Assembly: GCA_016187515.1 (NCBI GenBank)
Contig: JACPJN010000006.1
Coordinates: forward strand, 192,856 to 256,855
Source: Candidatus Uhrbacteria bacterium
Lineage (GTDB): Bacteria > Patescibacteriota > Patescibacteriia > GWA2-47-26
Direction of reading: 5' to 3'
Length of the DNA: 64,000 nucleotides
The notes below the pieces were generated by a model, which was not told the DNA's origin, ran no database searches, and saw nothing but the letters and a program-made list of their open reading frames with translations. Within the stretch, counting starts at the first letter, position 1. Each line of letters begins with the position of its first letter. Below are positions 4,502-63,177 of the stretch, in pieces. A program made the translations under genes and the position numbers.

Positions 4502-6982
4502 ATGTCCAAAGAAATTCCAAAGCAATACAACGCCTCCGAGCATGAGGATTCCATATATAAAATGTGGGAGGCCTCCGGCGCGTTTACGCCAGAGGCGGCA
4601 AAGAGCATAGGGCGTATAGCAAAGAGTAGGAACCCTAAGCCCTCAGCTCTAAGCTCTAAGCCATTTTGTATCATCATGCCTCCGCCCAATGCCAACGGCG
4701 CTTTGCATATTGGCCATGCCTTTGAAGTCGCCTTGCACGATCTTTTGGTGCGCTACCACCGCATGCGTGGCGATAAAACTCTTTGGCTTCCCGGCGCGGA
4801 TCATGCCGGCTTTGAGACCCAAGTGGTGTATGATAAAAAACTGGAAAAGGAGGGCCGTAATCGCTTCAAAATACCGCGAGAAGAATTGTGGCAAGAAATC
4901 TGGAACTTTACGCAAGAAAATAAAAAAACCATGGAGGGACAGCTGCGCAAACTCGGCGCCTCTTGTGATTGGTCGCGCGAAAAATTTACCCTTGATCCTG
5001 ATATAATTAAAACTGTTTATGCGACGTTCAACCAGCTCTATGTCGATGGGCTTGTCTATCGCGATAACCGCATTGTGAATTGGTGCACAAAGCATCAAAC
5101 CACTCTTTCAGATCTTGAAATAAAGCACGTTGAGCGCAAAGACCCGCTTTATTACATCAAATACGGTCCAGTAACTTTGGCCACAGTGCGTCTGGAAACA
5201 AAATTTGGCGATACCGCAGTGGCGGTACACCCGAAAGATAAGCGATATAAAAATTTAATCGGCAAGGAGATCGAGATCAAAACGTTACTTGGCCTGACAA
5301 AAATCAAAGTCATTGGCGATAAGGCGGTTGATCCGGAATTTGGAACCGGTGCGGTAAAAGTAACGCCGGCGCATGATCCGAATGATTTTGAAATGTGGAA
5401 AAGGCATGAACAAGAAATTCCAGGACCAAAATCGGTTATTGATCAATATGGTCGCATGGAACTTGTAAGCCGCTGGCCGGACAATCCGGCTGCGAAAAAA
5501 TACCATGGCATGAAGGTGCTGGAGGCACGTAACGCTATGGAGAAAGACATGCAGGAGCAAGGATTGATGAACAAAATTGATTCGGAGTATGTACATAGCG
5601 TTGCGACCTGCTATAAATGCGGCAACATTGTGGAGCCAAGAATTTTACCACAATGGTATGTCCGCATGACGGCTCCGCCGTCAGCGGGAAATCACAAATC
5701 ACAAATCACAAATCACAAATCTCTGCGCGATATTGCAGTTGAGGCGGTAAGGAAAGGCGAAATTAAAATTATTCCGAAACGATTTGAAAAAATCTTCATG
5801 CATTGGATGAAAAACTTGCGCGACTGGAATATCAGCCGTCAAATCGTGTGGGGCATTCGGATTCCGGCGTGGTATCGGTCTACGGTTCCTCCCCTTAGGG
5901 TAAGGGGAAGCGAGGAGGGGTTACGAGACGTTCATAACCCACCCCAATCCTCCCACGCCTTTTGGGAGGGAGAAACGGAAATTTATGTAGGCGCCAAACC
6001 ACCAAAAGGCGAGGGTTGGATCCAAGATCCGGATGTCTTTGATACTTGGTTTTCCTCCGGCCAGTGGCCATTTGCTACTCTTGGCTATCCGCATGGCAAA
6101 GATTTCAAAGAATTTTACCCGACCGATGTCATGGGGCCGGCGTACGAAATTCTTTTCTTCTGGGTGGCGCGGATGATTATGCTTGGTCTTTATCGCACCG
6201 GAAAAATTCCTTTCAAAACCGTGTTTCTCCACGGTTTAGTACGCGATAAGGACCGACAAAAAATGTCCAAATCTAAAGGAAACGTGATTGACCCTTTGGG
6301 AGTTGCGGATTTATATGGCACGGATGCCGTGCGTATGGCGCTCGTTTCTGGAACGGCTCCGGGTAATGATCCGACCATTTCCGAGGAAAAAATAAAAGGC
6401 TACCGTAATTTCGCAAACAAAATCTGGAACGCGAGTCGGTTTGTGCTGATGAATCTCGACCCGCTTTTTGTCATTCCGAGCGAAGTCGAGGAATCTCACA
6501 TGATGAAACACGGCAAGCGCATGGCAGGGCAAGGTGTGAGATCTCTCACTGGCGTTCGAGATGACATTGTGTTGAGCGCAGCCGACAAAAAAATCCTCAA
6601 AGAACTAGAGGCCATGGCCAAAAAAGTAACCCGCCATTTGGATAAATTTGAATTTCATCTTGCGGGAGAAACTCTCTACCACTATTTCTGGCATACCTTT
6701 GCGGATAAGATTATTGAGCAAATGAAACCGCGGCTACAGGGAGAGACCCCTCCTAACCTCCCCTCCGAGAGGGGAGGAAACGAATCACTTTCTCCCCCTG
6801 CCCGAGGGGGAGTTAGAGGGGGTGGGAGCGATCGTCTCACCGCCCAATATATCCTCTACACCTGTCTGACCACCTCCCTCAAGCTCCTCCACCCCTTCAT
6901 GCCGTTTGTTACGGAGGCGGTGTGGCAACAATTACAGCACAAAAAGAAAACCATGCTTATTACCGAATCTTGGCCGGTATGA
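4502..6982 (+). CDS. valS: valyl-tRNA synthetase
   Basis: The class I HIGH motif reads PPPNANGALHIGHAF, and KMSKSKGN is present. The gene carries one heptamer repeat insertion at 5688-5722 and two palindromic insertions at 5888-5975 and 6746-6827. Confidence 0.85.
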   Translation: MSKEIPKQYNASEHEDSIYKMWEASGAFTPEAAKSIGRIAKSRNPKPSALSSKPFCIIMPPPNANGALHIGHAFEVALHDLLVRYHRMRGDKTLWLPGADHAGFETQVVYDKKLEKEGRNRFKIPREELWQEIWNFTQENKKTMEGQLRKLGASCDWSREKFTLDPDIIKTVYATFNQLYVDGLVYRDNRIVNWCTKHQTTLSDLEIKHVERKDPLYYIKYGPVTLATVRLETKFGDTAVAVHPKDKRYKNLIGKEIEIKTLLGLTKIKVIGDKAVDPEFGTGAVKVTPAHDPNDFEMWKRHEQEIPGPKSVIDQYGRMELVSRWPDNPAAKKYHGMKVLEARNAMEKDMQEQGLMNKIDSEYVHSVATCYKCGNIVEPRILPQWYVRMTAPPSAGNHKSQITNHKSLRDIAVEAVRKGEIKIIPKRFEKIFMHWMKNLRDWNISRQIVWGIRIPAWYRSTVPPLRVRGSEEGLRDVHNPPQSSHAFWEGETEIYVGAKPPKGEGWIQDPDVFDTWFSSGQWPFATLGYPHGKDFKEFYPTDVMGPAYEILFFWVARMIMLGLYRTGKIPFKTVFLHGLVRDKDRQKMSKSKGNVIDPLGVADLYGTDAVRMALVSGTAPGNDPTISEEKIKGYRNFANKIWNASRFVLMNLDPLFVIPSEVEESHMMKHGKRMAGQGVRSLTGVRDDIVLSAADKKILKELEAMAKKVTRHLDKFEFHLAGETLYHYFWHTFADKIIEQMKPRLQGETPPNLPSERGGNESLSPPARGGVRGGGSDRLTAQYILYTCLTTSLKLLHPFMPFVTEAVWQQLQHKKKTMLITESWPV
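5888..5975. repeat. Palindromic element (ccccttagggtaagggg / ggggttacg type) in-frame in valS
   Basis: It translates to PPLRVRGSEEGLRDVHNPPQSSHAFWEGE. Confidence 0.6.
6746..6827. repeat. Palindromic element (cccctcc..ggagggg type) in-frame in valS
   Basis: It translates to ETPPNLPSERGGNESLSPPARGGVRGGGSD. Confidence 0.6.
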
Positions 6983-7824
6983 CCCCGCTTCGCACGTTTC
7001 TCACAATCGCTAGAGCATTGGCCAAAAGCCCCATGCATTTTTGGGATGAACAGGACCAAAAGACGTTACTCAAAGAAACCGATGACGCGGCCAAGCGACT
7101 GCTCAAAACATTGGAACAAAAAGACCTTAAAGATACACAGGCGTATAAGCATTTAGACGTGCTTGAAAAATCAGTTACGGAAAAAGAAATTGATGAGCTT
7201 GCTTTTTCGCAAGCCCTGGCGAATTTAGTGGAAGTATACCGCCAATCCCCGCCCACTGAAAATTTGCAAGAATTGCTGGAAGAAATCAACCCGTATGTCA
7301 TCAAGGCCAAACAGCGCGTGCTGGAATATCACATTGCGCTGGAGCAGCTTAGGAAAAAAAGCAAAAAAATGAGCGAGGAGGAAAAGCTCAAAAGCGATCG
7401 GGAAACCATTAAAAATGTGGGGGTATTCTATGTGCTGGAATACACCTTACAGGTACTTTGGGAATTTGCACACATTCCAGATGAAGATAAGAAAAAACTC
7501 CTGACTGAAGGGCTCAAAACCAAAGCGGGGAATTTGCCGGCCTACTTGCCGCTGGAAGACACCTTTCGCAAAGAGCTCTGCTACAAAATGTTTGATGAGG
7601 ATTTACGGGATAAATTACTCCACGCATTTTACGAATTGGAAGAAGTGTTATATAGTGAGGATCTGAAGGCAATCGGAGGCGCGCTCAAAGCATTCCATCT
7701 TGAATTACTCAAGGCCTTTCAATCCAAAGGCATGCAAACCTACAAAGCCGTGGCCTACGCGCCGTTTGGGAATGATGTGAGTGTGGAGGAATTGGTTAAG
7801 AAAATTGAGACGGTCAAGGTCTAA
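6979..7824 (+). CDS. hypothetical helical protein
   Basis: Its ATG at 6979 overlaps the valS TGA at 6980-6982 (an ATGA overlap). The protein is Lys/Glu-rich with predicted coiled coil. Confidence 0.5.
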   Translation: MTPLRTFLTIARALAKSPMHFWDEQDQKTLLKETDDAAKRLLKTLEQKDLKDTQAYKHLDVLEKSVTEKEIDELAFSQALANLVEVYRQSPPTENLQELLEEINPYVIKAKQRVLEYHIALEQLRKKSKKMSEEEKLKSDRETIKNVGVFYVLEYTLQVLWEFAHIPDEDKKKLLTEGLKTKAGNLPAYLPLEDTFRKELCYKMFDEDLRDKLLHAFYELEEVLYSEDLKAIGGALKAFHLELLKAFQSKGMQTYKAVAYAPFGNDVSVEELVKKIETVKV

Positions 7825-8070
7825 AAGGAACGGAAAAATACTATCCCTATATTGCATCCAAAGAGCTTAATCTGCAGATTTTGCCAAAATAAAATACAGC
7901 CCCTACTCCCTTGCGGGAGACGCCACCATGAAGGCGACTAGTCAGGGCTGTATCAATTCCACTATCACCATACCATAAGATACAATATCTGTCAAGACAA
8001 CGGTGGGGATAAGTCATGCATAGCAACAATATGATAACGCAATAACTTAATAACCAAATAACTCATCAAT

Positions 8071-8946
8071 ATGCCAACCCCGGGAGACGAGAAAAAACCA
8101 AAGCAAGAAAGACCTCAAGGACCAGAGACGCTGGAGGAGGCCGCGGCGCGCGCGGCCGGAGTAGCGCGGGCGGGAAGGGAAAAAGCGGCTGGAGCGGCGC
8201 TGGCGGAGGCGGAAAAAGCATGGGATCCAGACAAATTTCTCGCACAATTGACGAGTTATCAAGACAACCCTCAATTACCAGATTACGAAGAGAAGATGGA
8301 CGCGCTTGGAGATCAATTTCAGGAATTTGGGGAGCAGTACGCAGATCGTTGGCAGGAAATGATAGAGCAGGGATTGGGCGGAACGCCGGAAATGGTTGCT
8401 GTACTTCGAGAAAAACTTCGAGGAAAGTTGCTGGTAGATCTTGGAGGCGGATACACGCTTGGAGATGGCCCAAGAGGTATTATGCAGTCAATCATGCAAG
8501 ATGTGGCGCTGGAGCTTGGAGTTAAGGATTATGTGAATGTTGATCGCCATTTTACCAAACGAAGGGTATCCGCATTTTTTAATCCTACAGATGTGACGAG
8601 GAGACTTGGCATTGAACAGCCAAGAGGGATGCATGCGCTTTATGTGCAAGCAGATATGCTCGCTTTCCTTGCGCATATGCAGAGCGAGACTCCAAATTTA
8701 ACAATCGCGCTAAATGGTATTGATTCATTTGTGATTCCTGATCGGGCGCGCTTTGGCCGCGGTGATTCATATTTTCAAATGCTTGTGAAGGAGATCGCTC
8801 GTGTACTACCCAAAGGTGGAGTAGTGCTGACCCAAGGATCTGAAGACGCAACAAAGTATTTTGATGATGCTGTATTTGAAGCAGCGCCAGGATACTCAAA
8901 AGAAAAAGGTGCGATGTTTGAAGGGCAGGTGTGGGTAAAAAAATAA
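8071..8946 (+). CDS. hypothetical protein, paralog A. It has a shared N-terminal module and a possible Rossmann-like GGG motif (LLVDLGGGYTLGDG).
   Basis: The N-terminal ~45 aa (MPTPGDEKKPKQERPQGPETLEEAAARAAG...AALAEAEKA) and about 30 nt of upstream sequence are shared with the 9050 gene. Confidence 0.5.
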   Translation: MPTPGDEKKPKQERPQGPETLEEAAARAAGVARAGREKAAGAALAEAEKAWDPDKFLAQLTSYQDNPQLPDYEEKMDALGDQFQEFGEQYADRWQEMIEQGLGGTPEMVAVLREKLRGKLLVDLGGGYTLGDGPRGIMQSIMQDVALELGVKDYVNVDRHFTKRRVSAFFNPTDVTRRLGIEQPRGMHALYVQADMLAFLAHMQSETPNLTIALNGIDSFVIPDRARFGRGDSYFQMLVKEIARVLPKGGVVLTQGSEDATKYFDDAVFEAAPGYSKEKGAMFEGQVWVKK

Positions 8947-9049
8947 ATCATCTATGATATAGCGGTGTCGTGATATGCAATTTAAGAGGATGTATTTGAT
9001 TACCTGGATCCAGCGGGCTGCGATCCATAACTAATAATAACTCACCAAT

Positions 9050-10054
9050 ATGCCAACCCCAAAAGGCGAGAAAAAACCAACACCAGAACAGCCCAAAGGG
9101 CCAGAAACGCCGGAGGAAGTTGCGGTGCGCGTGGCGGGCGCAGTGCAGGCAGGAAAAGAAAAATCCGCCGCCGCGGCGCTGGCAGGGGCGGAGACCGAAG
9201 CACCGACGGCAGAGCGTGCTGAACAAGATCCTGCGGCGCAAGCCCGCGAGATTGCTCAAAAGTATCTTGACACAATTCCGGAGGCGGACAGAAAACTTAC
9301 TGACCCCAAACAGGTTGAAACTTTATTGTATGTCCTTGAAAGTACTTACACCCCTCCGGGCAGTCAACTATTTGCAAATGTAGATAGGCTCGGGAATATG
9401 CCTACACGTGCACGAGAAGCTTTTTTTAAAAAAGATGTTAAAGGGCTGGCGCAAGCATGGCGAGATTATGCTGACGATCCTGTTGGTGTTGCTAAAGAAG
9501 CCGATAAATTGAGGCAGATTGGCGCAAGTACTCTTCCGGAGTCGGTGCGCACAGCGCTACTCTCTATCATTTTGAAAGAGGGGGATCATTCCGTGGTTGA
9601 GATGGCAAAAGATGCCGCGGCAGCATTGGAGCAGACTGGTGATCTGGGAGCGTTAAAATCATTGAGGGAAAAATATCTCACACCTGAAGTATTCAAGGCG
9701 ACTTCCTTGCGGCAAGACGTTGCCCGTGAACTTCTTAAGGGGTTGTATCCGGATTTAATGCAACGTGAAGAAGTGGCATTCTTTGAGGAAATGAGTAGTT
9801 TGCCTGATGAAAAATCATCTGATAAAAACACCGTCGTGGCCATGGTCGAACGGTATGGGCAATTATTGGGTGATGCACCACTATCGGAGCGGGCTAGTGA
9901 TGAGTTAGAGGGTGCAATAAATCCGCAGGACGTCATCACTAAGATACAGGACGGTAGTATCCCAGAGCATGCTCTTGGGGCCGTTATTTCTGCGCTTCAA
10001 GTAGAAGCACGGTCCAAAATTGCTCAAAAAGCAACCTCGGCGGAGAAGAAGTAA
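9050..10054 (+). CDS. hypothetical protein, paralog B (shared N-terminal module, different C-terminal domain)
   Basis: It begins MPTPKGEKKPTPEQPKGPETPEEVAVRVAG...AALAGAE. The conserved upstream sequence is ataactaataataactcaccaatATG. Confidence 0.5.
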   Translation: MPTPKGEKKPTPEQPKGPETPEEVAVRVAGAVQAGKEKSAAAALAGAETEAPTAERAEQDPAAQAREIAQKYLDTIPEADRKLTDPKQVETLLYVLESTYTPPGSQLFANVDRLGNMPTRAREAFFKKDVKGLAQAWRDYADDPVGVAKEADKLRQIGASTLPESVRTALLSIILKEGDHSVVEMAKDAAAALEQTGDLGALKSLREKYLTPEVFKATSLRQDVARELLKGLYPDLMQREEVAFFEEMSSLPDEKSSDKNTVVAMVERYGQLLGDAPLSERASDELEGAINPQDVITKIQDGSIPEHALGAVISALQVEARSKIAQKATSAEKK

Positions 10055-10086
10055 CAGGTAATCGCCAACTCTTTACTAATTTGCAG

Positions 10087-10240
10087 TTGTACTATAAAAT
10101 AGTTGTATATGCCCCGTAGTAGAAGTTCGACAGCGACTGTTTCACTGCGGTGCATAGCACGAAATACCCTTCAGGGAGGTTATTCCCTGGAATAAACATT
10201 AACCCTTAAGTTCCAGTCGAACTTTCACTACGGGGTATGC
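10087..10240. repeat. Long near-perfect inverted repeat (19 of 20 bp arms) enclosing about 90 nt. It may be a structured RNA or the termini of a miniature element.
   Basis: The left arm is ccccgtagtagaagttcgac (10111-10130). The right arm is gtcgaactttcactacgggg. The middle contains the hairpin agggaggttattccctgg. Confidence 0.45.
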
Positions 10241-10479
10241 ACACTAACGAAACACTGCGCGGACGACTCCGCACCCCTAAAGAAGTAGAACTTGAAAAAG
10301 AATTAAACCTCCCTATCGGAAGCGAGGTAAGTATTAACATTATCTCGACAGCACCTTCTACAAGTGCGGCATTTATCCGTTTTAAGCGCGCCGTAGGGAG
10401 CTGGAAAGATATTCCAGAAGATTTTATCAAGCGTGTCTATGCCGATCGCCACTTCAGCACCCGCCGGGAACCCCAGTAG
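10237..10479 (+). CDS. putative AbrB/SpoVT(MazE/VapB)-like antitoxin remnant
   Basis: The segment ELNLPIGSEVSINIIS resembles the swapped-hairpin AbrB-type antitoxin core. It sits immediately upstream of the VapC fragment. This is a weak call. Confidence 0.25.
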   Translation: MHTNETLRGRLRTPKEVELEKELNLPIGSEVSINIISTAPSTSAAFIRFKRAVGSWKDIPEDFIKRVYADRHFSTRREPQ

Positions 10480-10487
10480 ACAATTTC

Positions 10488-10592
10488 GATTTACTTATAG
10501 GTTGTACCGCGCTTGTGTACAATCTTATTTTATTGACCAACAATCGAAAACATTACGAACTTATTGAGGGATTGCATATTGAATCTTTAGAA
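10488..10592 (+). pseudogene. VapC (PIN-domain toxin) C-terminal fragment
   Basis: It translates to [37 protein letters not shown], which is the typical VapC C-terminus (LIAATAL...LVTNN.KHF..I.GL). The N-terminal catalytic part is missing. Confidence 0.45.
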
Positions 10593-10596
10593 AATC

Positions 10597-10704
10597 CTTA
10601 AACTTCTCCACCCTTTCATGCCCTTTGTTACGGAGGCGGTGTGGCAGCGAATGCCCCACGCCCAAAAATCCATGCTCATAGTTGAGAAATGGCCAAAAAT
10701 GTGA
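10597..10704 (+). pseudogene. Duplicated 3' fragment of valS
   Basis: It encodes ...[34 protein letters not shown]. The real valS C-terminus at 6870-6982 reads [34 protein letters not shown]. The two are about 75% identical at nucleotide level over about 100 nt. Confidence 0.6.
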
Positions 10705-10758
10705 TACAATATGGAAGTCAACCACGAACTACTACATGCGAATATACACGAAATTTAA

Positions 10759-11941
10759 TATGCAACCGACAAAACAACAACTTGATGAACTACTGACGCG
10801 GGGAGTCGCGGAAGTGATTGACCGTGAACATCTTAAGGCGCGCCTGCTTAAAGGCGAGAAGTTGCGCCTCAAGCTTGGTATTGATCCGACTGGGCCGGAT
10901 TTGCATATTGGGCATGCGGTGGTACTTTGGAAATTACGCGCGTTTCAGGAACTCGGACATCAAGTTATAATTGTGGTCGGCGATTTTACCGCCACGATCG
11001 GCGATCCTTCCGGACATGATAAAATGCGCGAACCGCTCACGCCCGCGCAAATCAAAAAAAATCTTACTACCTTTAAAAAACAAGCGCTCATGGTGCTTGA
11101 CCCGAAACGCACCGAGTTTGCGCCGCAGACCAAATGGTTTGATAAAATGACACCCCAGGACATCATGGGCCTTACCACGCACTTCTCGGCATGGCGCATT
11201 CTTGAACGAGATCTTTTTGAAAGGCGGAAAAAAATGGGCGAGGAATTGAGTTTGCTGGAACTATTCTATCCCGTATTTCAGGCCTATGATTCCGTGGCCA
11301 TCAAGGCCGAGGTAGAATTCGGCGGAACTGATCAGACCTTTAATCTCTTACAAGGCCGGAAGATCCAACCACACTTTGGCCAAAAACCACAAGATATCTT
11401 CACGATGCAACTTCTTGAAGGCCTTGACGGTCGCAAAATGAGCAAGACCTACGGCAACACGGTAAACCTACTTGATGCTCCGGAAGAAAAATACGGAAAA
11501 ATCATGTCGTTGCGGGATGATCTAATGGTAAAATACTTTGCGCTTTGCACACGTCTGCCTTTGGATGAAATAACGCGCATCTTAAAGCAGAATCCCCGCG
11601 ACGCCAAAATGCGCTTGGCGCGAGAAATTGTGGCGCTATACCATGGAGCGAAAGCCGCGCAGAGGGCAGAGGATCAATTCGTGCGGACGTTTCAGAAGCA
11701 TGAAATTCCAAGCGAGATAAGCGAGATAAGGATTAAGGATCAAGTATTGAACATTGTTGAACTGTTGGTGAAAGCGAAGCTGGCGGAAAGCAAAGGTGAT
11801 GCCCGCCGAGTAGTTGAACAAGGCGGGGTGCAGGTGGATGGAAAAGTTGTCAAAGATCCCAACGCCGAAATCAAACTCGGGAAGCAAGGCGTGCTTCTCC
11901 AAAAAGGCAAACGGCATTTTGTGCGAGTGTATGGTGCTTAA
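10759..11941 (+). CDS. tyrS: tyrosyl-tRNA synthetase with C-terminal S4 domain
   Basis: HIGH motif (GIDPTGPDLHIGHAV), KMSKT, and an S4-like C-terminus. I place the start at MQPTKQQLDELL (10759). Confidence 0.85.
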
Positions 11942-13817
11942 TCAGGCACGAAAAGACATCCTAGCGATTCTCAATAAGGCGGGGGTTGCGGCAACGCCCG
12001 CTGATCTTGTCTTTCCGCCAGATCCGCAGATGGGCGATCTGTCGTTGCCGCTTTTTGCGCTGGCCAAGGAGCGGAAAATTGCGCCGGGGGCGCTGGCGCA
12101 GGAATTGGCACGGACATTGAAACCGGCCGGACTGGTGGAGCGCCTTGAGGCCGCTGGGCCGTACCTTAATTTTCGGCTGAAGCGGGGGGAAGTGGCTAAA
12201 ATGATGCTCACCCTCCCCTCAATCCCCTCCCGTCAAGGGAGGGGAAGCAAAACAAAATCCCCCTCCCCTAGTGGGAGGGGTCAGGGGAGGGGGAATCAGC
12301 GCATCATGATGGAAATGGTTTCTCCCAACAACAACAAACCTCTCCACCTCGGACACTTGCGCAATGCGTTTTTGGGCGAATCAGTCGCCCGTCTGCTTGA
12401 ATCGCAAGGCGCAAAAATTATTCGTACCTGTCTTTTTAACGATCGCGGACTGGCGATTGCCAAAGCCATGCTCGCCTACAAACTTTGGGGCCCGCCAAAC
12501 TTTCCATCAACAAAGGATAAAGTTAAGCGGGTAAACCAAAGTCTGCCAGAAAAGGGAGACCACTATGTGGTGCAGTGGTATGTGTTATTTGAGCAAAGAG
12601 CAAAGAGCAAAGAGCAAAGTGATTTACAAAAACAAGCCGAGGAATTGGTGCGCCTTTGGGAAGCCGGCGACAAAGAAACTCTCGCGCTTTGGAAAAAAAT
12701 GGCTGGCTGGGCGCTGGACGGCATCAATGAAACACTCAAGCGGATTGAAATTAAATTCAACACTATCTATTATGAGAGTGAGCTTTGGAAACAAGGGAAA
12801 AAAGTGGTTGAGCAAGGATTAAAAAAGGGTATTTTTAAAAAAGACGAGAGCGGGGCGGTGCTGGTGGAATTTGACTCACCCTCACCCCAACCCTCTCCCA
12901 TCAAGGGAGAGGGAGTAATCGGCAATCCCCCTCCCCTGGTGGGAGGGGTAAGGGGAGGGGGTTTACCCCCAAAAGTTCTTTTGCGCTCCGATGGCACGGC
13001 AATCTATGCCACGAGCGACCTAGCGCTTACCCCGGAAAAATTTAGAAAATATAAACTTTCGCATTCAATCTGGTGCGTGGGGCAGGAACAGGATCTTTAT
13101 TTGAAACAGCTTTTTGCAATTTTTAAACTGCTCAATTACAAATGGTCTGATTCCTGCGAACATTTAACCTACGGGCACGTCGCGCTTCCGGAAGGGCGCA
13201 TGAAAACGCGGGAGGGAACTGTGGTGGAAGCCGATAATCTTTTGGATGAACTTCACGAACTCGCCCGCAAAGAAACGCAAAAACGGCATAAAGGCCTTGG
13301 GCGCGAAAACCTGCATGCCCGAGCTGAAACAATCGCGCAGGCCGCGGTGCGCTATCATCTTTTGCGCGTTGACCCGAAATCCGGAATCCAATTTGACCCG
13401 CAACAATCACTCGCCTTTACCGGCGACACCGGGCCGTATCTGCTTTACACGTATGCGAGGATTGCAAGCATACTCCGGAAGGCGGAAACTAGAAATTTGA
13501 AATTAGAAACTAGAAAATCTAAATCACCAATCACTAATTTCCAATTTCCAATTTCGCAAAATGAGTGGACACTCATTTTGCTTCTTGCCCGCTTTCCGGA
13601 AATCATTACGCAGGCCACCAAAGATCGCGACCCATCCCATCTTGCAAAATATCTCTATAAACTTGCTCAACAATTTTCTGATTTTTACGAAAACTCGCCA
13701 ATTCTCAAATCCGCCGAACCCATCCGCTCCTTCCGCCTGGCCCTTATTTCCGCCATTCAAAAAACTCTTAAACATGGTCTGCACCTTTTGACCATTGAAA
13801 CGGTGGAGGAGATGTGA
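11931..13817 (+). CDS. argS: arginyl-tRNA synthetase
   Basis: The HIGH-like motif reads PNNNKPLHLGHLRN. The ATG at 11931 overlaps the tyrS end by 11 nt. It carries heptamer repeats at 12588-12620 and 13486-13550, and palindromic insertions at 12210-12297 and 12878-12965. Confidence 0.85.
   Translation: MVLNQARKDILAILNKAGVAATPADLVFPPDPQMGDLSLPLFALAKERKIAPGALAQELARTLKPAGLVERLEAAGPYLNFRLKRGEVAKMMLTLPSIPSRQGRGSKTKSPSPSGRGQGRGNQRIMMEMVSPNNNKPLHLGHLRNAFLGESVARLLESQGAKIIRTCLFNDRGLAIAKAMLAYKLWGPPNFPSTKDKVKRVNQSLPEKGDHYVVQWYVLFEQRAKSKEQSDLQKQAEELVRLWEAGDKETLALWKKMAGWALDGINETLKRIEIKFNTIYYESELWKQGKKVVEQGLKKGIFKKDESGAVLVEFDSPSPQPSPIKGEGVIGNPPPLVGGVRGGGLPPKVLLRSDGTAIYATSDLALTPEKFRKYKLSHSIWCVGQEQDLYLKQLFAIFKLLNYKWSDSCEHLTYGHVALPEGRMKTREGTVVEADNLLDELHELARKETQKRHKGLGRENLHARAETIAQAAVRYHLLRVDPKSGIQFDPQQSLAFTGDTGPYLLYTYARIASILRKAETRNLKLETRKSKSPITNFQFPISQNEWTLILLLARFPEIITQATKDRDPSHLAKYLYKLAQQFSDFYENSPILKSAEPIRSFRLALISAIQKTLKHGLHLLTIETVEEM
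12210..12297. repeat. Palindromic element in-frame in argS
   Basis: The sequence caccctcccctcaatcccctcccgtcaagggaggggaag...ccccctcccctagtgggaggggtcaggggaggggg translates to LTLPSIPSRQGRGSKTKSPSPSGRGQGRGN. Confidence 0.6.
12878..12965. repeat. Palindromic element in-frame in argS (second)
   Basis: It translates to SPSPQPSPIKGEGVIGNPPPLVGGVRGGGL. Confidence 0.6.
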
Positions 13818-13974: not shown

Positions 13975-15225
13975 ATGCATATTGCCATTGACGCTCGAAT
14001 GTATGGAACCGCCCAGCGCGGGATTGGACGGTATTTGATGAAGTTGATTGAGGGGTTGGAGGAAATTGAAATTGCTCCCACCCCTCCGAACCTCCCTTCG
14101 GGCAGGGGAGGAAATTTGTACACCATTTTTTTACGCCGTGAAAATTTTGACGAATACCAGCCGCGCAATCCCAATTTCAAAAAAGCGCTTTGGAACGCGC
14201 CCTGGTACGGCTTGAAAGAGCAAATCAATTTCAAACAACTCACTGCTGTGAACTGTGAACCGATGGCTGTGAACTCAATATACCATTTCCCCCATTGGAA
14301 TGTCCCCCTTTTATTCCGCCAGCCATTTGTGGTAACTATCCATGACCTGGAACTTTTCTCATCCAATCGCACACGGGAGAATACAACGCGCGGACGACTT
14401 ATCTACTGGTTGAAATTTCAGGCCTTCAAAATAATTTTCCGCCATGCCGTACTGGCCGCCCGCGGAATCATTGTGCCGAGCAATTATGCGCGCGAGCAGC
14501 TTTTAGATCTGTATCCGCAGGCGCGGAAAAAAGTACGGGTGATCTACGAAGCACCCGCTTTAGTCAACAGTTCACAGTCAACAGTTCACAGTAAACCAAA
14601 GCAAGCCGTGAACCGTGAACCGCTGACTGATGACTACGTCTTGTACGTTGGCGCCGCCTATCCGCATAAAAATCTTCCCCGCCTATTTGAGGCGTGGAAG
14701 ATCGTACACGCGCAATTACCTGACTACAAACTTGTACTGGTCGGCCGGGAGGATTGGTTTTGGAAAAAACTAAAAGCACAGTGGGGGCATAACCCCTCCC
14801 ATCCTCCCCTTACCTTAAGGGGAGGAGACGATCGCGACCCACCTCTTAAGGTAAGAGGGGGGAGGGGGAGTTATGGCCAACAAAACGACATTATCTTTTA
14901 TGGCGAAACTACGGACGCCGAACTTACCGCCCTTTACCAAAACGCCGCCCTCCTGGTGCAGCCCTCGCTCACGGAAGGATTTTCTCTCCCTCCGCTTGAA
15001 GCGCTTGCCCACGGCACGCCGGTCGCGGTTTCCGACATCCCGGTACACCGCGAAATTCTAGGCCAAGCCGCGGCCTATTTTGATCCGAAAAATCCCGCCG
15101 CCATTGCTAACGTGATTATTCATACCCTGCGTAACCCGATAATCGCTAAGCTGCCGCGTACCTATTCTTGGCGCGAAAATGCCCAACAAACTCGGGCGCT
15201 GTACGAAACCGTCAAGATTGTGTAA
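13975..15225 (+). CDS. glycosyltransferase family 1 (GT4)
   Basis: The C-terminus has the E-x7-E region EGFSLPPLEALAHGTPV. There are palindromic insertions at 14088-14124 and 14788-14876. Confidence 0.7.
   Translation: MHIAIDARMYGTAQRGIGRYLMKLIEGLEEIEIAPTPPNLPSGRGGNLYTIFLRRENFDEYQPRNPNFKKALWNAPWYGLKEQINFKQLTAVNCEPMAVNSIYHFPHWNVPLLFRQPFVVTIHDLELFSSNRTRENTTRGRLIYWLKFQAFKIIFRHAVLAARGIIVPSNYAREQLLDLYPQARKKVRVIYEAPALVNSSQSTVHSKPKQAVNREPLTDDYVLYVGAAYPHKNLPRLFEAWKIVHAQLPDYKLVLVGREDWFWKKLKAQWGHNPSHPPLTLRGGDDRDPPLKVRGGRGSYGQQNDIIFYGETTDAELTALYQNAALLVQPSLTEGFSLPPLEALAHGTPVAVSDIPVHREILGQAAAYFDPKNPAAIANVIIHTLRNPIIAKLPRTYSWRENAQQTRALYETVKIV
14788..14876. repeat. Palindromic element in-frame in the glycosyltransferase gene (a smaller copy lies at 14088-14124)
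   Basis: The sequence cataacccctcccatcctccccttaccttaaggggagga...cttaaggtaagaggggggagggggagttatgg translates to HNPSHPPLTLRGGDDRDPPLKVRGGRGS. Confidence 0.6.
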
Positions 15226-23634: not shown

Positions 23635-24672
23635 CTAAAAAATGTTTCTTCCAAGCCGATATACCATATACCAAAACTGGCTCAAGGGCAAGTCAAAAGT
23701 GCCGGGGTAGTTCACGACCTTGCCGCCGAATCCCATTTTGAACCGCGTCATGCCAGACCAATCGCGCACACCCTCACCCCCGCCCTCTCCCATCGAGGGA
23801 GAGGGAGAGTGAATGCCCCAGAAATCGTAAAACTTGTACCCTTCTTTTTTCACCTCCTGCATAATTTGCCAATGCAAAGCATACGGTCCCATCAATGCGC
23901 GATGTGCGTAGGAGGAGGCGCCGTGCAAATACGTGGCCGTGTCGCCAAAATATCCTACCATCGCCGCGGCAAGAGGAGTGGAGTCGGAGTAGGCGATGTG
24001 GAGGCGCATATGCATGCGATTGGATATTGGAGATTGGATATTGGATATTTGTTCCGAATCTCGAATCTCTAATCTCGAATCTCCCAGTATCTCCAGTATC
24101 TTCTCATAATACCCCCGCTCATGCGTCCGAAACTTATCGCGCTTCGCGGTTTCTTCAAGCAGCTTCCAAAATTTTTCAAAGTCATCTCGAATCTCTAATC
24201 TCGAATCTCTAATCTCGACGCCTCGCCGCAAGGCGAGACGTATGTTGTATCGCGTCTTTTCATGCATCGCAGCAAGCAGTTCTTCTTCGGATTGCGCAAG
24301 ATCAATGAGCAGCGTCTGCATGGGACTTACCGACTTTGTAGGACGGAGGACGGAGGACGGAGGACGGAGTTTTTGCAGTGGTTCCATACGCACAAATATC
24401 GCTCCATGTTTTTTTGCTTTTTCTATAATTCCATCGATTAGCGTCCCGCGCGGAATAAACCAATACTTCTTACCAAACGGCAGCGGCAGCTCAATCACTT
24501 GCGCCGCACTGTGAACTGCTGACTGTGAACTATTGACTAATCTGTACACTTGCCGTCCTACAGATTCCTGAAACTCCCCCCACTCCCACGACTGCAAAAA
24601 AATTCCCGCTTGGCTTGGCCTGGAAAGTAGGGATCCGTTCCAAATTTTTGGATCATTGGCCTCAACTAACAT
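23635..24672 (-). CDS. FemAB-family peptidoglycan interpeptide-bridge aminoacyltransferase
   Basis: FemAB-like segments KTRYNIRLALRRG, YLHGASSYAHR and YDFWGI. It is riddled with simple-repeat insertions (RLEIRD twice, DGGRS etc.). I place the start at MLVEAN. Confidence 0.6.
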   Translation of the reverse strand: MLVEANDPKIWNGSLLSRPSQAGIFLQSWEWGEFQESVGRQVYRLVNSSQSAVHSAAQVIELPLPFGKKYWFIPRGTLIDGIIEKAKKHGAIFVRMEPLQKLRPPSSVLRPTKSVSPMQTLLIDLAQSEEELLAAMHEKTRYNIRLALRRGVEIRDSRLEIRDDFEKFWKLLEETAKRDKFRTHERGYYEKILEILGDSRLEIRDSEQISNIQSPISNRMHMRLHIAYSDSTPLAAAMVGYFGDTATYLHGASSYAHRALMGPYALHWQIMQEVKKEGYKFYDFWGIHSPSPSMGEGGGEGVRDWSGMTRFKMGFGGKVVNYPGTFDLPLSQFWYMVYRLGRNIF

Positions 24673-25813: not shown

Positions 25814-28800
25814 TCATACCTTTCTCATTCCCACCCATATTTTATTGTTGTTTTCAAGGGGGATTTCGTATGACCAGGACATCTCTTGCGGCGCGTTTAC
25901 AAGTTTCACCGCGCGGGCCAGGACTGCTTTGCGCAGTTGTTTTTGATATTCTTTGACAACACCCCTCACCCCGCCCTCACCCGGCCTTTCGGCCACCCTC
26001 TCCCGCGGGGAGAGGGGAGGGTGAGGGTTCATGATTGCAATCAGTATGTCCACCTTGTCGGACGGCGTCAGTCCTGCGGCTTTGCGCGCGTCGTTGATCA
26101 GGCGCGTAAGTTCGCGAGCGAGGCCTTCTTTTTTAAGTTCCGGGGTGAGTTCGGTATTGAGTGAGACGGTGAGATTGCCGTCGGTTTTAGTGATCCAGCC
26201 GCCCCCTCCCCTCGCCCCTCCCACCAAGGGAGGGGAATTTCCAATCGTTTCCTCCCCCGCGACAGTCTCCCTCTCCCCCTGTGGGAGAGGGTTGGGGTGA
26301 GGGGTGGAGGATTTAGGAGGGGGGACAATCGTCACCTCCCTCACATTCACCTCCTCCGCAATTAATTGTAGCAAAACATCGCGATTCGCACTTTCTAATT
26401 TCCAATTTCCAATTTCCAATTTCCCCAATGGTTGTCTCACCTTCAACTTCGCTTCCGCCCGCGCCGCGTGCGCCAGCTCCACCACCTTACGCGCCGCGCT
26501 CATCTCTTCAAGCAGCGCCGTATCAATTTTTGCTTTCTTGAGTTTTGGCCAGTCGGATAAGTGAACGGATATTGGATGATTGGATGATTGGATGATTGGT
26601 GATTCATTGTCTTTTCGAATCTCTAATCTCGAATCTCTAATCTCCCGATACACATGCTCCGCCAAAAACGGCATAAATGGGGCAAGCACTTGCGACAGAG
26701 TATGTAGAACGTAGCGGGTAGTGAGTAAGGCGACGCGCTTCTCGCTTTTCTTTCCCTTAAAACGATCACGACTGCGGCGAAGATACCATTGGGAGAGATC
26801 AGCGATAAAATCCTGTATGGGCCGGCTGGCCTCGGATAATTTATATGCCTCCATATTCTCGGTCACCTCCTGAATCAGTTGATGCAACCGTGCGGCAATC
26901 CATTTGTCCAATATATGTTTAGAATTTGGAATTTTGAGTTTGGAGTTTGTTTGGGATTTGGGATTTGGAATTTGGAATTTTTCGTCTTGTGGTGCGTACA
27001 ATTTATAAAACTCCACCACATTCAAAAGCATGCTGACTACTTTATTATACATCTCGCGCACGCCTGCCTCCGAGAAATTTAAATTCTCCGCGTGCATGAC
27101 CGGAGAAGTCGCAAAGTAATAACGCAAGGCATCCGCGCCATACTTATTTATTACCGCCTCCGGTTCCGGATAATTTTTAAGGCGCTTGGCCATTTTTTTG
27201 CCATCTTCCGCCAGCACAATGCCATTGACAATCACGTTTTGAAACGCCGGCACGACTTTGCCAATCGGGATAGCTGGCGTTTTGCCGCGGGTAAGCGCCA
27301 CGGCTAGCACATGAAGCGTATAAAACCAGCCGCGGGTTTGATCCTGTCCTTCAGCAATAAACTCCGCTGGAAACGCCGCCTCAAACCGATCCTTATTTTC
27401 AAACGGATAGTGCATTTGCCCGTAGGGCATGCTTCCGGACTCAAACCAGCAATCTAATACTTCCGGAATGCGCTTCATTGTTCCTCCGCACTGCTTACAA
27501 GGAAAAGTTAATTCATCAACAATATGTTTATGCAAATCACCCACTGATTTCTCCACCAATTTTTCCAACTCTGCCACAGAACCGACAACGATAATGTTTT
27601 GACATTTGGAATTTGAATTTTGTTTGTCATTTGTAATTTGTAATTTGTAATTTCCGGTTTGGCATCGCCAAACCGGCAGCGGCGTTCCCCAAAAACGATT
27701 GCGTGAAATCGCCCAGTCGCGCGCGCCTTCAAGCCATTTGCCAAAACGCCCTTCCTTAATATACTCCGGCACCCAATTCGTCTTTTTATTGGCTGAAAGC
27801 AAAAGCTTTTTTAATTCGGTCACGCGCACAAACCAGCTGGAGGTTGCGTAATTCAAAAGCGGGGTATCACAGCGCCAGCAATGCGGATAGCTATGCGTGA
27901 TTGGCTCTGCGCGAAACAATTTGCCGCTTCCGCGCAGCCATTCTACAATTTTTTCATCTGTGGCGCCGGGATTGTCTTTGGGCTTAACTTCCCAACCCTT
28001 GAAATCCGCGACCTCCTCCTTAAAGCGGCCGTCCATACCCACATGCTGAACCAGCGGAATTTTTTGCTTTTGTCCAACCTGATAATCATTCTCGCCAAAA
28101 GCCGGCGCAATATGCACAACACCCGTACCATCTTCGGTCGTAACAAAATCTCCGGCCACCACCCGAAACGCGCGCTCGGTATCTTTATAGTATGGAAATA
28201 ATGCTTCGTATTTTAGCCCAACCAAGTCCTTGCCTTTAAGCTCTTTTACCACCTCGTATCCTCCACCAAGCATGGAAAGTCGCGCTTTGGCCAGAATGTA
28301 GTATTCGTCACCATTCGTAACCCCCCTATCCCCCCTTACCCTAAGGGGGGAATTTTCTGCGGCTCCCTCCCTTAAAGTAAGGGAGGGCTGGGGTGGGTTA
28401 TGAATCTTCACCACCACATAATCAACATCCGGATTTACCGCCAGAAGGACATTCCCCGGCAATGTCCATGGGGTTGTCGTCCAAGCCAGAAGATAAGTTG
28501 GTAAGTTGTAAGTTGTAAGTTGTAACTTACTACTTACTTGCTTACTACTTACAACTCGGAATTTCACGGTCACCGCCTTCTCTTTTACATCTTTATAGCC
28601 CATCGTTACTTCAAAATTTGAAAGCGGAGTTCCACAACGCGGACAAATATGCATGGCCTTGTATCCTTCATAAATCAACCCTTGTTTCCAAAGTTCCTTA
28701 AACACCCACCACACGCTTTCCATGTACGAAAGATCCATGGTTTTGTAGTCGCGCTCCATATCCACCCAGCGTCCAATGCGGCGGATTGTCTTTTTCCACT

Positions 28801-37357: not shown

Positions 37358-38443
37358 ATGTTTGATGTCATTACAATAGGAAGCGCGACCCGCGACGTGT
37401 TTTTGTTTGTCCAAGCGCTTCATCCGCATCGGGAATCAGACGCGGTAAGTAAAATTGAGGCCTGTCTTCCCTTCGGCGCTAAAATTGATATTGAACGCCT
37501 TGCTTTTGATACCGGCGGAGGAGCAACCAACAGCGCCGCGACGTTTGCGCGGCTGGGAAAATTTGAAGTTGCGGCGCTCACGCGCATAGGACAAGACAGC
37601 CGCGGACAAAGTATTTTAAAAGTGCTTCACGCCGACAACATTGATACTTCGTTGGTGCAAGTCACCAATAAAGATCATACCGCTTATTCTTCAATCCTTT
37701 CTCCAACCCACGCGCATAGTGAGCGCACGATTTTGGTCTATCGCGGGGCATCCTCATGCATTGAGAGCAGTAAAATTCCGTGGACTAAACTGCGTGCCAA
37801 ATGGTTTTATATATCTTCGCTTGGCGGCGATCTGTTACTTTTAAAGAAACTTATCGACCATGCTCGAAGGATAAAAGCTCAAGTCGCCTGGAATCCCGGC
37901 GGTCAAGAACTCTCCAAACTCACCCCTCCCCTTAGGTTAAGGGGAGGTTGGGAGGGGTTACGACAATCAATTGACTTCCTCATCCTCAACCGTGAAGAAG
38001 CCGCAAAACTCACTGGAAAAAAATTCGATGACACCAAAGGATTGCTTCGCGCGCTGGCGCGTACTACACACATCGCAGTCATGACCGACGGCCCTAAAGG
38101 CGCGTATGCCATCGTAGGTTCACAGTCATCAGTTCACAGTTCACAGTATCGTAATTCAAAAACTAATTACCCAATTACCAAATTACCTAATCACCAAACG
38201 GCCTACTTCGTCCCCTCTGTCGGCCACAAACCGGAAAATCTCACCGGCGCCGGTGACGCTTTCGGTTCCGGCTTTGTAACCGGCTGGATCAAAAGCCGCG
38301 GCGATATCAAATACGCCTTACGCTTGGCTTCGTTCAATGCTGACAGTGTAGTCCAACACGTCGGCGCGAAAAACGGAATTCTTGAGAAAATTCCTTCCGC
38401 AAAGCAGCTGCAAAAGTTGCCCGTAAAGACACTGCACATTTAG
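37358..38443 (+). CDS. PfkB-family sugar kinase (second copy)
   Basis: I place the start at MFDVITIGSATRDV. The C-terminus has a GAGDAF motif. There is a palindromic insertion at 37921-37962 and tandem repeats at 38120-38200. Confidence 0.65.
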   Translation: MFDVITIGSATRDVFLFVQALHPHRESDAVSKIEACLPFGAKIDIERLAFDTGGGATNSAATFARLGKFEVAALTRIGQDSRGQSILKVLHADNIDTSLVQVTNKDHTAYSSILSPTHAHSERTILVYRGASSCIESSKIPWTKLRAKWFYISSLGGDLLLLKKLIDHARRIKAQVAWNPGGQELSKLTPPLRLRGGWEGLRQSIDFLILNREEAAKLTGKKFDDTKGLLRALARTTHIAVMTDGPKGAYAIVGSQSSVHSSQYRNSKTNYPITKLPNHQTAYFVPSVGHKPENLTGAGDAFGSGFVTGWIKSRGDIKYALRLASFNADSVVQHVGAKNGILEKIPSAKQLQKLPVKTLHI

Positions 38444-42922: not shown

Positions 42923-44326
42923 TCAAAGCAATTTTTTCTGCGCGGCTTTTTCTTGCTCATCAAAAATATTTACCACCCCGTACTCGCCGTCATAACCGGG
43001 CGGATCGATTTTAACTTTTCCATCGCGCACTCTTTTTATTGCTTCCGCCAGGCGCGGCGAGGCAATAGCCGCGATCTCTTGCGGCAGTAGATTCAAAAGT
43101 AAATTCAGCTCTGTCCCCGCTTTCGCGACTAAATCCCAATACACTTTCTTCACGCTTTTCGCGCTTCTTCCTTTTACTCCTTCGGCTTCGGCAATAATTT
43201 TATCCAGTTCAATAAGCGGCCAAAATTGCGGGTGCGCGAGCGGAACACGGCCGGCTGGCTCATTGGCCAACTCCTCCACGCGCGAAAGCACGCCGACGGT
43301 TACGAGTTTTTTGCATTTCGGACAAATGCCGCCTAACTTCTTGGTTTCTTTAGGATGCAAGCACGCTTTACACGCGCGATGGCCGTCATAATGATAACGG
43401 CCTTCGTCGGGAATGAACTCCAGAGTGCCGGACATCCGCAATCCGCCCCCTCCCCTAACCCCTCCCACCGAGGGAGGGGGATCCTTTTTTACTCCCTCTC
43501 CCTTTATGGGAGAGGGCTGGGGTGAGGGTGGTTGCGTCAACTTCGCAGGTGCAGCATTGCGTATCGCCTCCATGATGGCATCGTACGACAGCGCACTCTC
43601 GCTTCCCTCAAACACGGTTGCCTCTCTTCCCAGGTTTGGCAATGAGTGAGCATCGGCAAAAGAGACCAGCGCCACGCGGTCAAGTTCGCGCACGCGCCAG
43701 CACATTGGCGGATCGGCGGACAGCCCGGTTTCAATGGCAAAAATATGCGGAGTCAATTCTTCAAAACACTCTTTAATGGAATCAAACCCGGAATTGGATC
43801 CGAAGATCGCAAACCAAGGAGTAAAAGCATGCGCCGGGATCATCACATTGCGCGGGTCAATCCCTAAAATAATTTTCAACAGCTCTTTTGAGCTCATGCC
43901 GATGATGGCGCGCCCATCTGATCCTAGTTTGCACCCGCGCGTGAGTAGCGCGGCATTTATTTCCCCCGCCACCTTTATCGAAGGCGCGTAAATACAATGA
44001 TGCACCCTTCTCACTTTGCGTGCACCTTGAGAGTAAATACACGCCAGCTCCGTGCCCAGCATGAAAAGCGTGGGCTTTTTAGGCAGAGGAATTGGCGGGG
44101 GCGAGGTTGGCGCGCCTCCATCCCGCAACACATACAAGCTCTCTCGGCCGCTCGGAACTAACTTTTCCTTGATCTCCTCAAACCATTTTGTATGCGTAAA
44201 GTCGCCGGCAGAAACAATATCCACGCCTTTAACCCGGCACCAGGCGTCGATATTTTCAAGGGTAAGCGCCGGTGAACACGCGCGGGCGTATTTTGAATGC
44301 GTGTGGAGATCGGCAATGAATCGCAT
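42923..44326 (-). CDS. PHP-domain nuclease, Endonuclease Q-like, with a C-terminal Zn-ribbon
   Basis: N-terminal MRFIADLHTHSKYARA (PHP His motif). C-terminal CKACLHPKETKKLGGICPKCKK. There is a large palindromic insertion at 43444-43533. Confidence 0.45.
   Translation of the reverse strand: MRFIADLHTHSKYARACSPALTLENIDAWCRVKGVDIVSAGDFTHTKWFEEIKEKLVPSGRESLYVLRDGGAPTSPPPIPLPKKPTLFMLGTELACIYSQGARKVRRVHHCIYAPSIKVAGEINAALLTRGCKLGSDGRAIIGMSSKELLKIILGIDPRNVMIPAHAFTPWFAIFGSNSGFDSIKECFEELTPHIFAIETGLSADPPMCWRVRELDRVALVSFADAHSLPNLGREATVFEGSESALSYDAIMEAIRNAAPAKLTQPPSPQPSPIKGEGVKKDPPPSVGGVRGGGGLRMSGTLEFIPDEGRYHYDGHRACKACLHPKETKKLGGICPKCKKLVTVGVLSRVEELANEPAGRVPLAHPQFWPLIELDKIIAEAEGVKGRSAKSVKKVYWDLVAKAGTELNLLLNLLPQEIAAIASPRLAEAIKRVRDGKVKIDPPGYDGEYGVVNIFDEQEKAAQKKLL
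43444..43533. repeat. Palindromic element in-frame in the EndoQ-like gene
   Basis: The sequence ccgccccctcccctaacccctcccaccgagggaggggg...ccctctccctttatgggagagggctggggtgagggtgg encodes PSPQPSPIKGEGVKKDPPPSVGGVRGGGG on the minus strand. Confidence 0.6.
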
Positions 44327-61543: not shown

Positions 61544-61799
61544 ATCTGGGGTGCTTTTTAGTATTGTTGTAAGAGTAATCACATCGCTCGCTCCGCTCGC
61601 TCTGTGTACGAATTACAAATCTTGTACGAATATTACGAATGTTGTCAATTCAAATTCGTAGTATTCGCAACGCCATTCGTTGATTCGTACACAGGAAGCG
61701 CCGGAGGCGCTGAATCCAAATTAGTGCTTCAGTGCTTTTGGATCGATTAGTACCGCTCGGCTCAAACCGTTACCGGTCTTACACCTGCGGCCTATCGCC

Positions 61800-61920
61800 A
61801 GCGCTCCGCGCTGCAAATCCCAAATTACAATTTCCAAATCCCAAACAAATTTTAAATCCCAATTTCTAAATTCCAATTTTGTGATTTGGAATTTATGATT
61901 TGGGTATTGTTTGTAATTTG
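61800..61920 (-). repeat. AT-rich simple-repeat expansion segment inside the 3'-terminal 23S rRNA region (H98 variable region)
   Basis: tttggaat/aatttggg-type repeats are inserted between two conserved blocks: one ending ...ccaataaccaagcacc and one starting ggccgcaggtgtaagaccgg. Confidence 0.5.
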
Positions 61921-62005
61921 GTGCTTGGTTATTGGAATTTCCAGTGCGAAGCACTGGTTTTACCTGGTCATCTCCCAGGGATCCATAAGACCTAATCTTG
62001 AGGAC

Positions 62006-62044
<39 letters not shown>

Positions 62045-62169
62045 AACGCTGCTACCGAGCAATGCCCTTGGTAGAACAACTCGTACACAGGAGGTTCGTG
62101 CCTTTTGGTCCTCTCGTACTGAAAAGGCGCCCTCTCAAGTCTTTACGCCCGCGGCAGATAGGAGACCGA

Positions 62170-62922: not shown

Positions 62923-62933
62923 GCATGTATTCC

Positions 62934-63164
<231 letters not shown>

Positions 63165-63177
63165 TGGCGAACAGCCA

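Follow-up and report, generated by a model that had tools for sequence, protein, structure and literature searches.

The bacteria of the Candidate Phyla Radiation (CPR) are ultra-small and uncultivated, and their genomes are known almost only from metagenomes. The closest described counterparts of the locus reported here come from other bacteria. The Correia elements of Neisseria, which belong to the miniature inverted-repeat transposable elements (MITEs), are ~100–150 nt long, have terminal inverted repeats (TIRs) and no open reading frame (ORF), and are flanked by short target duplications; they insert next to promoters or start codons, where they give rise to long hairpins in transcripts. 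Displacement of C-terminal ends by homology-facilitated illegitimate recombination was put forward for type VI secretion (T6SS) effector-immunity arrays of Vibrio cholerae (PMC5361080) and likewise for rhs genes (Jackson et al. 2009, cited in PMC5361080). Here we analyse the interval between valS and tyrS in a 64-kb stretch of a Candidatus Uhrbacteria genome (contig JACPJN010000006.1; the window hereafter denotes this whole stretch, and coordinates are window positions). The locus appears to be a layered record of 3′-end displacement, islet turnover, toxin-antitoxin (TA) decay and a small-transposon hit, all of them events of known kinds. We consider it probable that a variable islet arrived by displacement of the valS 3′ end and that the TA pair residing there was then inactivated twice.

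The order on the + strand of the window is valS, three ORFs, a stretch flagged by an earlier note, tyrS and argS, where valS (4502-6982, +) has an uninterrupted frame of 826 aa that includes tRNA-synt_1 and Anticodon_1 domains, its product being 100% identical to a ValRS annotated for a Candidatus Uhrbacteria bacterium on a 355,817-bp NCBI contig. The arrangement is 100% identical over 3.5–6.1 kb in five contigs that were assembled independently from separate sequencing runs, which excludes an assembly or sequencing artefact. Exact-sequence look-ups of the tyrS and valS products returned no record; relatives, numbered L080 to L101, were reached by a valS homolog search combined with gene-context look-ups. 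In L080, L081 and L083-85, the valS genes of which are 70%, 73% and 66% identical to that of the window, respectively, tyrS follows 14–50 nt after valS and a gene for a DHH-family protein precedes it, giving the order DHH-valS-tyrS(-argS). The valS–tyrS junction was thus tight ancestrally, with a variable islet present within one subclade, and relative to the genomes with adjoining genes ~3.6 kb is inserted in the window, the flagged stretch forming the right-hand end of the insert. This bears out the suggestion of the earlier note that the region is the footprint of a rearrangement. A scan anchored on tyrS, with one genome per species, returned 79 loci, none of which has valS within 10 kb; as the best is 52% identical and these relatives are generally only ~50% identical, the scan is uninformative on valS–tyrS adjacency.

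Where the junction is occupied, its content varies. In L082 (valS 67% identical), the interval contains a homolog of the vapB-like gene of the window (72%), an intact PIN gene (86% identical to the fragment in the window), a valS 3′ fragment of its own and, preceded by that fragment, an MFS transporter gene. L096-98, contigs that include the 3′ part of valS only, carry vapB, PIN and MFS genes without a valS fragment, whereas L100, which retains only the last ~70 nt of valS, has vapB, PIN and one other gene. The L099 contig, without a full valS, encodes an ATPase-like protein followed by a decayed valS tail, vapB and PIN. On the L101 contig, which includes only the final ~95 nt of valS, these are followed by an 84%-identical counterpart of the first islet gene of the window (orf281), a DUF3800 gene, a DUF3800-IX RNA, a parB-like gene and an MFS gene, and the contig stops short of the right-hand islet boundary. 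Thus, valS is followed by vapBC in L082, L096-98 and L100 and by orf281, the parB-like gene and MFS in L101. With empty junctions in some relatives and different islet versions in others, the site between valS and tyrS is a recombination hotspot.

The key to the history of the insert is a displaced valS 3′ end at 10597..10704 (+), which comprises 35 codons plus a stop (LKLLHPF...WPKM, then stop). Positions 10596-10679 are 79% identical to 6877-6960 over 84 nt, including an identical stretch of 23 nt, and the frame is open to its own stop at 10702-10704. The likeness to valS reported in the earlier note is therefore real, as is the intact frame. The proposal that the fragment duplicates the resident valS does not hold, however, since valS genes of other Uhrbacteria resemble the fragment at least as closely as the resident gene does. 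Compared with the functional resident 3′ end (6877..6982, +), the fragment is 72-73% identical in nucleotides (96 aligned nt) and 76% in amino acids, while it is 75-79% identical in nucleotides to full-length valS of L080, L081, L082 and L083, 76% to that of L098, and 72% to the stranded valS fragment of L082; at the protein level, identity reaches 85% (L098 valS tail). Within the first 17 codons, the fragment and the resident gene show six differences, each of them synonymous, and the counts of synonymous and non-synonymous differences from functional valS tails fall within the range seen when functional tails are compared with each other. This identity pattern, together with the allele-like nature of the differences, argues that the fragment diverged inside a working gene of another lineage and has decayed little since.

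The end of the fragment points in the same direction. Its tail is of the longer ...WPxx-stop type also found in L080, L081 and L083, where valS abuts tyrS, whereas the shorter ...WPx-stop type occurs in the resident valS (...SWPV-stop) as in the L082 and L098 alleles, which are likewise islet-bearing, and the L101 tail is shorter still. In the fragment, the stop is followed by TACAAT; TGA-TACAAT or TGA-TATAAT likewise follows the valS stop in L081 and L083, TGA-TATGAT follows it in L080, and the arrangement is not present after the resident valS stop. In addition, the spacer downstream of the fragment stop resembles that of L081. Local tandem duplication of the 3′ end of the resident valS, with neutral decay of the downstream copy, would account for direct repeats 3.7 kb apart that share 23 identical nucleotides, but would not be expected to yield a copy that differs in tail length and type, carries the ancestral tyrS junction, shows a synonymous bias like that between functional alleles and is no more similar to its presumed source than to valS of other Uhrbacteria; we regard it as very unlikely. 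Rather, 10597-10704 appears to be the original end of valS, still in place before tyrS, such that everything from the resident valS tail to 10596 would be inserted relative to the ancestral state. Since the essential valS gene has remained intact, a valS tail of its own must then have come with the insert. The situation is not unique to the window, since further stranded valS tails are seen in L082 and, in decayed form (a frameshift plus a TGA), in L099.

The gene downstream of the fragment, tyrS (10763..11941, +), has a history different from that of valS. The window tyrS is 97% identical in amino acids and 86% in nucleotides to that of L080 (12358-13083, GCA_016203545), in contrast to 70% for valS, 65% for the DHH protein and at most 80% for the other shared genes. 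The high identity to L080 sets in near the fragment end, where 19 nucleotides across the valS stop and the –10 region are identical. This indicates that tyrS alone was probably exchanged recently between lineages, and it is a second apparent sign, besides the islet, of a recombination boundary at the fragment. A predicted tyrS promoter at 10682..10710 (+; TTGAGA-17-TACAAT with an upstream TG), which straddles the displaced valS stop, matches the consensus at 10 of 12 positions in a promoter scan. We infer that retention of the fragment is most simply explained by the presence of this predicted promoter within it. In automated annotation, the 108-nt valS tail may be taken for a pseudogene or for evidence of duplication, but it is better regarded as belonging to the upstream region of tyrS.

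On this basis, we suggest that incoming DNA from another Uhrbacteria lineage was anchored at one end by homology inside valS and joined illegitimately at the other, a form of 3′-end displacement by homology-facilitated illegitimate recombination. This DNA would have brought a new valS tail plus cargo, including a vapB-like/vapC (PIN) pair resident in the clade at this locus, and would have stranded the old tail, which may have been kept because its last ~25 nt and stop hold most of the tyrS promoter. A 287-nt deletion would have taken the first ~95 codons of vapC, and a 124-nt MITE-like element would have transposed onto the vapB start codon, duplicating TATG, splitting the near-leaderless ORF from its promoter and burying the ATG in a ~30-bp hairpin.

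A number of observations weigh against this history. No genome carrying this exact islet was found as a donor, both the direction and the mechanism of one-sided homology were reconstructed from the end products, and sliding-window identity of ValRS against four relatives revealed no breakpoint within valS. The right-hand joint, between the end of vapC and a Leu-Lys codon of valS, offers at most 1–3 nt of microhomology, which is not diagnostic. The window and L082 share this joint, with the same fragment start point, which is more in line with one origin, or with a site-specific process, than with illegitimate events that occurred independently. Moreover, over its last 45 nt the L082 fragment matches the valS of L082 at 98% identity, compared with 84% over its first 51 nt, such that one-sided displacement would need an extra gene-conversion step. 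Gene conversion after a single origin could account for these features, as could a site-specific process. Both promoter calls are consensus matches only. As for the small element, no transposase with matching ends was found, and the element is present as a single copy, with no further copies in the 64-kb window.

A site-specific process would in its simplest form be an integration ~105 nt before the valS stop that carried a replacement tail, with the two valS tails representing attL and attR. The start of the fragment at the same codon in the window and L082 would follow directly, and the repeated use of the valS tail in several genomes and the 23-nt identical stretch in both copies would also be in keeping with it. 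However, the 23-nt stretch codes for PFVTEAVWQ, the most conserved peptide, and its identity is thus attributable to protein constraint, and neither the L098 islet, which has no downstream repeat, nor the L099 relic, which begins ~15 nt further in, follows the expected pattern. No integrase or recombinase was called in the islets of the window, L082 or L096-L101, which argues against classical integration, although a recombinase might act in trans. We regard site-specific integration as unlikely, and 3′-end displacement as the probable route. A bolder reading, which we consider unlikely, is that in this Uhrbacteria clade the last ~100 nt of valS serve as a recurrent, integrase-free site for the capture of small gene cassettes, at which units of valS tail plus cargo, passed between lineages by natural transformation, use the tail as a homology handle and a clade-specific TA pair as a stabilising factor. 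If so, each capture would strand the previous tail, and the locus would amount to a recombinase-free analogue of an integron built on a housekeeping gene.

The cargo nearest to the fragment is the remnant of the TA pair. The vapC 3′ remnant (10465..10601, +), which reads GTPVDNFDLL...IESLENP followed by a stop, matches positions 94-128 of 130 of the NCBIfam VapC model NF047863 (E = 4e-6) and, weakly, Pfam PIN (E = 0.11), and is 86% identical to the C-terminus of the intact L082 PIN protein, which itself has a PF01850 match. Both the NCBIfam match and the L082 identity uphold the earlier assignment of a VapC C-terminal fragment. Comparison of the window with L082 reveals that 287 nt are deleted directly after 10464, such that vapC codons 1 to ~95 are gone and the N-terminal catalytic acidic residues of the PIN domain are not retained. 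The gene is thus decayed, as had been proposed, rather than affected by a sequencing error, since with 287 nt missing no frameshift correction can restore a full-length VapC. By contrast, we find no evidence for the idea that the TA cassette mediated the rearrangement; the cassette is a passenger, and it is found at the same locus in relatives both with and without a valS fragment.

Upstream of the remnant lies a vapB-like ORF (10237..10479, +) of 80 aa, the last 4-5 residues of which are altered by the neighbouring deletion. It is 70-76% identical to four proteins (P0122-P0125), with invariant N-terminal and C-terminal blocks, and forms with them a family of 5 clusters among 5.8 billion proteins. 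In the contigs that reach far enough (L082, L096-98, L099 and L100), the homologs are directly upstream of a PIN gene and overlap it, and wherever a contig shows the upstream flank, they follow a full valS or a valS 3′ relic. Searches of all five family members against Pfam and NCBIfam yielded no domain match even at E <= 10, and a profile search of the PDB returned nothing meaningful. An AlphaFold2 model has a strand-helix-strand N-terminus and a mean predicted local distance difference test (pLDDT) score of 62, that is, low confidence, and Foldseek found no match to it in the PDB with E < 3. None of these searches bore out the AbrB-type (AbrB/SpoVT) domain that the earlier note had suggested as a possibility. 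The putative antitoxin role therefore derives from the operon context, and the ORF appears to represent an undescribed, clade-specific antitoxin-like protein. The predicted promoter of the gene is located at 10072..10100 (+; TTTACT-17-TAAAAT), cut off from the ORF by the mobile element. Indeed, positions 10068-10110 are colinear and nearly identical with the sequence just upstream of the vapB ATG in L082 and L098, where TTGACT-N17-TAAAAT is followed by 8 nt and then the ATG; with the –10 box ending 8 nt before the start codon, the native vapB message would be nearly leaderless.

The element that separates the promoter from the ORF spans 124 nt (10112..10235; no strand assigned). It starts with CCCCGTAGTAGAAGTTCGAC and finishes with GTCGAACTTTCACTACGGGG, so that its two ends read CCCCGTAGTAGAAGTTCGAC and, as the reverse complement, CCCCGTAGTGAAAGTTCGAC. 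The inverted-repeat arms extend over 35 nt (10104-10138 and 10209-10243) with 77% complementarity, whereas the core TIRs comprise 20 nt (10112-10131 and 10216-10235) with 18 of 20 positions complementary, and the 84 nt between the core repeats are unrepeated. No match of this kind is expected in shuffled sequences, indicating that the inverted repeat is not due to chance. The earlier note was correct that an inverted repeat is present but overstated its size and perfection in describing a near-perfect structure of 154 nt, given 20-nt ends and an unrepeated interior. The element is flanked by TATG on both sides, on the left at 10108..10111, where the window reads ...GTATATG as do L082 and L098, and on the right at 10236..10239, where the ATG of the duplication is the start codon of the vapB-like ORF. 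The element thus sits exactly on this start codon, between promoter and ORF, and removal of 10112-10239 restores colinearity with L082, L098, L099 and L100, which represent empty sites.

A scan of 241 million metagenome records with the 20-nt end of the element returned three other distinct loci. At two of them, L086/L087/L090 and L089, both ends are present around unrelated interiors, with total lengths of 130-132 nt and flanking repeats of 4-5 nt (CAAG in L090 and (T)CAAG in L089), while L088 has one end only. An AG/GA asymmetry at end positions 10-11 is common to the window, L086/L087/L090 and L089. The ends were absent from the viral contigs and plasmids searched, and a literature search for MITEs in Patescibacteria retrieved nothing relevant. 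The TIRs, the small size, the lack of an ORF, the target-site duplication (TSD) and the empty orthologous sites together identify the inverted repeat as an apparent MITE insertion, belonging to a mobile-element family that is probably new. The earlier suggestion that the repeat represents the ends of a miniature mobile element finds support in the TSD and the empty sites, whereas delivery of the TA cassette by it is refuted, as the element was inserted within the cassette. The sharply conserved ends of this small element may be used for seeking the transposase and for tracking mobility in these genomes.

Since the RNA fold of the inverted repeat is very stable (–60.3 kcal/mol; z = –6.8 relative to shuffled sequence) and lies downstream of a predicted promoter, the repeat might alternatively be a structured RNA of the host, either a small RNA (sRNA) or a 5′ leader that regulates the antitoxin gene. 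With such an RNA, one would not expect four orthologous cassettes to lack it at this position, with a clean duplication of 4 nt, nor its 20-nt ends to recur at unrelated loci around unrelated interiors with flanking duplications of their own. In addition, Rfam, applied to the window at the gathering threshold and to 9900-10900 in a permissive scan, placed no family over the inverted repeat and gave only chance-level matches there. We consider a host RNA extremely improbable. Other candidates were also set aside. An integron attC site is defined by core sites RYYYAAC ... GTTRRRY at its ends within a cassette array; by inspection, the ends here are CCCCGTAG.../...CTACGGGG, with no GTTRRRY at the 3′ end and no nearby copies. 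An intrinsic terminator would require a U-run, which is lacking, and a retron or CRISPR fragment is incompatible with the lack of a reverse-transcriptase gene adjoining the element and with repeats that are inverted rather than direct. After insertion of the MITE-like element, the message would begin with the 124-nt hairpin, the 3′ arm of which holds the vapB ATG, and loss of antitoxin translation is a likely consequence, tolerable because the toxin is gone.

The remainder of the islet consists of three ORFs, for which searches of Pfam, NCBIfam, PHROG and PADLOC produced no meaningful match. Islet gene 1 (6979..7824, +) encodes a conserved hypothetical protein of 281 aa, and its ATG overlaps the valS stop (ATGA). 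It is 84% identical to the gene directly after valS in L101 and belongs to a family of ~87 clusters without assigned function. The start is most likely the ATG at 6979 rather than the GTG at 6922 (a 300-aa ORF), because homologs begin at residue 20 of the longer ORF. Islet gene 2 (8071-8946, +; 291 aa) and its paralog, islet gene 3 (9050-10054, +; 334 aa), are alike over the first ~50 codons and unrelated beyond. The corresponding repeat (D1; 8057-8213 and 9036-9192) spans 157 nt with 77% identity and includes 14 nt upstream in addition to the first ~50 codons, as if one shared N-terminal module had been joined to variable bodies. Homologs of the 334-aa protein form only 6 clusters, one of which is in the L101 islet. 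A DUF3800-IX RNA motif (7889..7954, –; Rfam RF02968, 51 bits compared with a gathering score of 36.8) lies on the strand opposite to the 291-aa gene, ~115 nt upstream of it. Its L101 counterpart (1599-1663, –) occupies an equivalent place, with the DUF3800 gene just before it and the parB-like gene downstream; in the window, the RNA is retained but the DUF3800 gene has been lost. No tRNA or tmRNA was detected in a scan of the flagged region.

Comparison of L082 with the window shows that the whole synthetase cluster is mosaic. In L082, a HicAB pair (8108-8595) lies between tyrS and argS, argS is only 37% identical to that of the window, and a reverse transcriptase plus bAvd downstream (8878-12015) constitute the signature of a diversity-generating retroelement. 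The locus thereby offers a view, event by event, of how a CPR genome turns mosaic around essential genes, where a stranded gene tail both dates and orients a horizontal acquisition.

Other repeats were observed in the window. A GC-rich nested palindrome of ~35 nt (CCCCCTCCCCT..GGGAGGGG..AGGGGAGGGGG) recurs in at least 13 copies over the 64 kb, at sites that include 528-560, 6794-6826, 12211-12293, 12927-12961, 14077-14108, 26202-26235, 37923-37957 and 43446-43480, among others. Several copies lie in frame in valS, argS and a glycosyltransferase gene, where they add Pro/Gly/Arg-rich peptide loops, and they recall the Rickettsia palindromic elements; a DHFR-like ORF in L089 contains a peptide similar to that encoded by the nested palindrome. 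Tandem heptanucleotide repeats (for example AAATCAC x4, GATTAGA/GATTCGA and GAAATTG), some of them in coding sequence, are found at 5689-5716 (in valS), 13536-13550, 24058-24210, 26397-26420, 26615-26640 and 38130-38143. At the end of the window, the 3′ part of a 23S rRNA gene (61740-64000, –) occupies ~2.3 kb for ~750 model positions and contains up to three matches resembling group I introns (62218-62487, 62934-63141 and 63233-63602), all of which are below the Rfam gathering score.

Compared with known systems, the locus shares with genomic islands at the 3′ ends of tRNA, tmRNA or protein genes the presence of gene-end direct repeats (attL/attR) that flank the insert and leave the target intact. 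However, no integrase was among the islet genes called, the repeats are different alleles with 72-79% identity, and some islets at the same site have no downstream repeat. The TA remnant resembles type II VapBC systems in that a small gene overlaps a downstream PIN gene (L082, L096-98 and L100) and the PIN C-terminus matches the NCBIfam VapC model, but the upstream protein matches no known antitoxin family, and the pair in the window has a deleted toxin and an antitoxin uncoupled from its promoter. The small element has the size, the TIRs, the lack of an ORF, the short TSD, the insertion at a promoter or start codon and the hairpin in common with bacterial MITEs of the Correia type. It differs from these in its TSD, which is 4 nt rather than TA, and in the relationship between copies, where the interiors are unrelated while the length (124–132 nt) and the 2-nt end asymmetry are conserved. 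As in the displacement of rhs and T6SS genes, the homology anchor would lie in the conserved 5′ part of the gene, a new 3′ end arrives with linked genes and the old end is orphaned downstream; in those systems repeated rounds generate strings of orphans, with which L082 and L099 may be compared. In contrast to rhs and T6SS, the target here is an essential aminoacyl-tRNA synthetase rather than a polymorphic toxin, the exchanged tails are functionally equivalent, and the orphan was probably kept for the promoter of its neighbour and not for an immunity gene.

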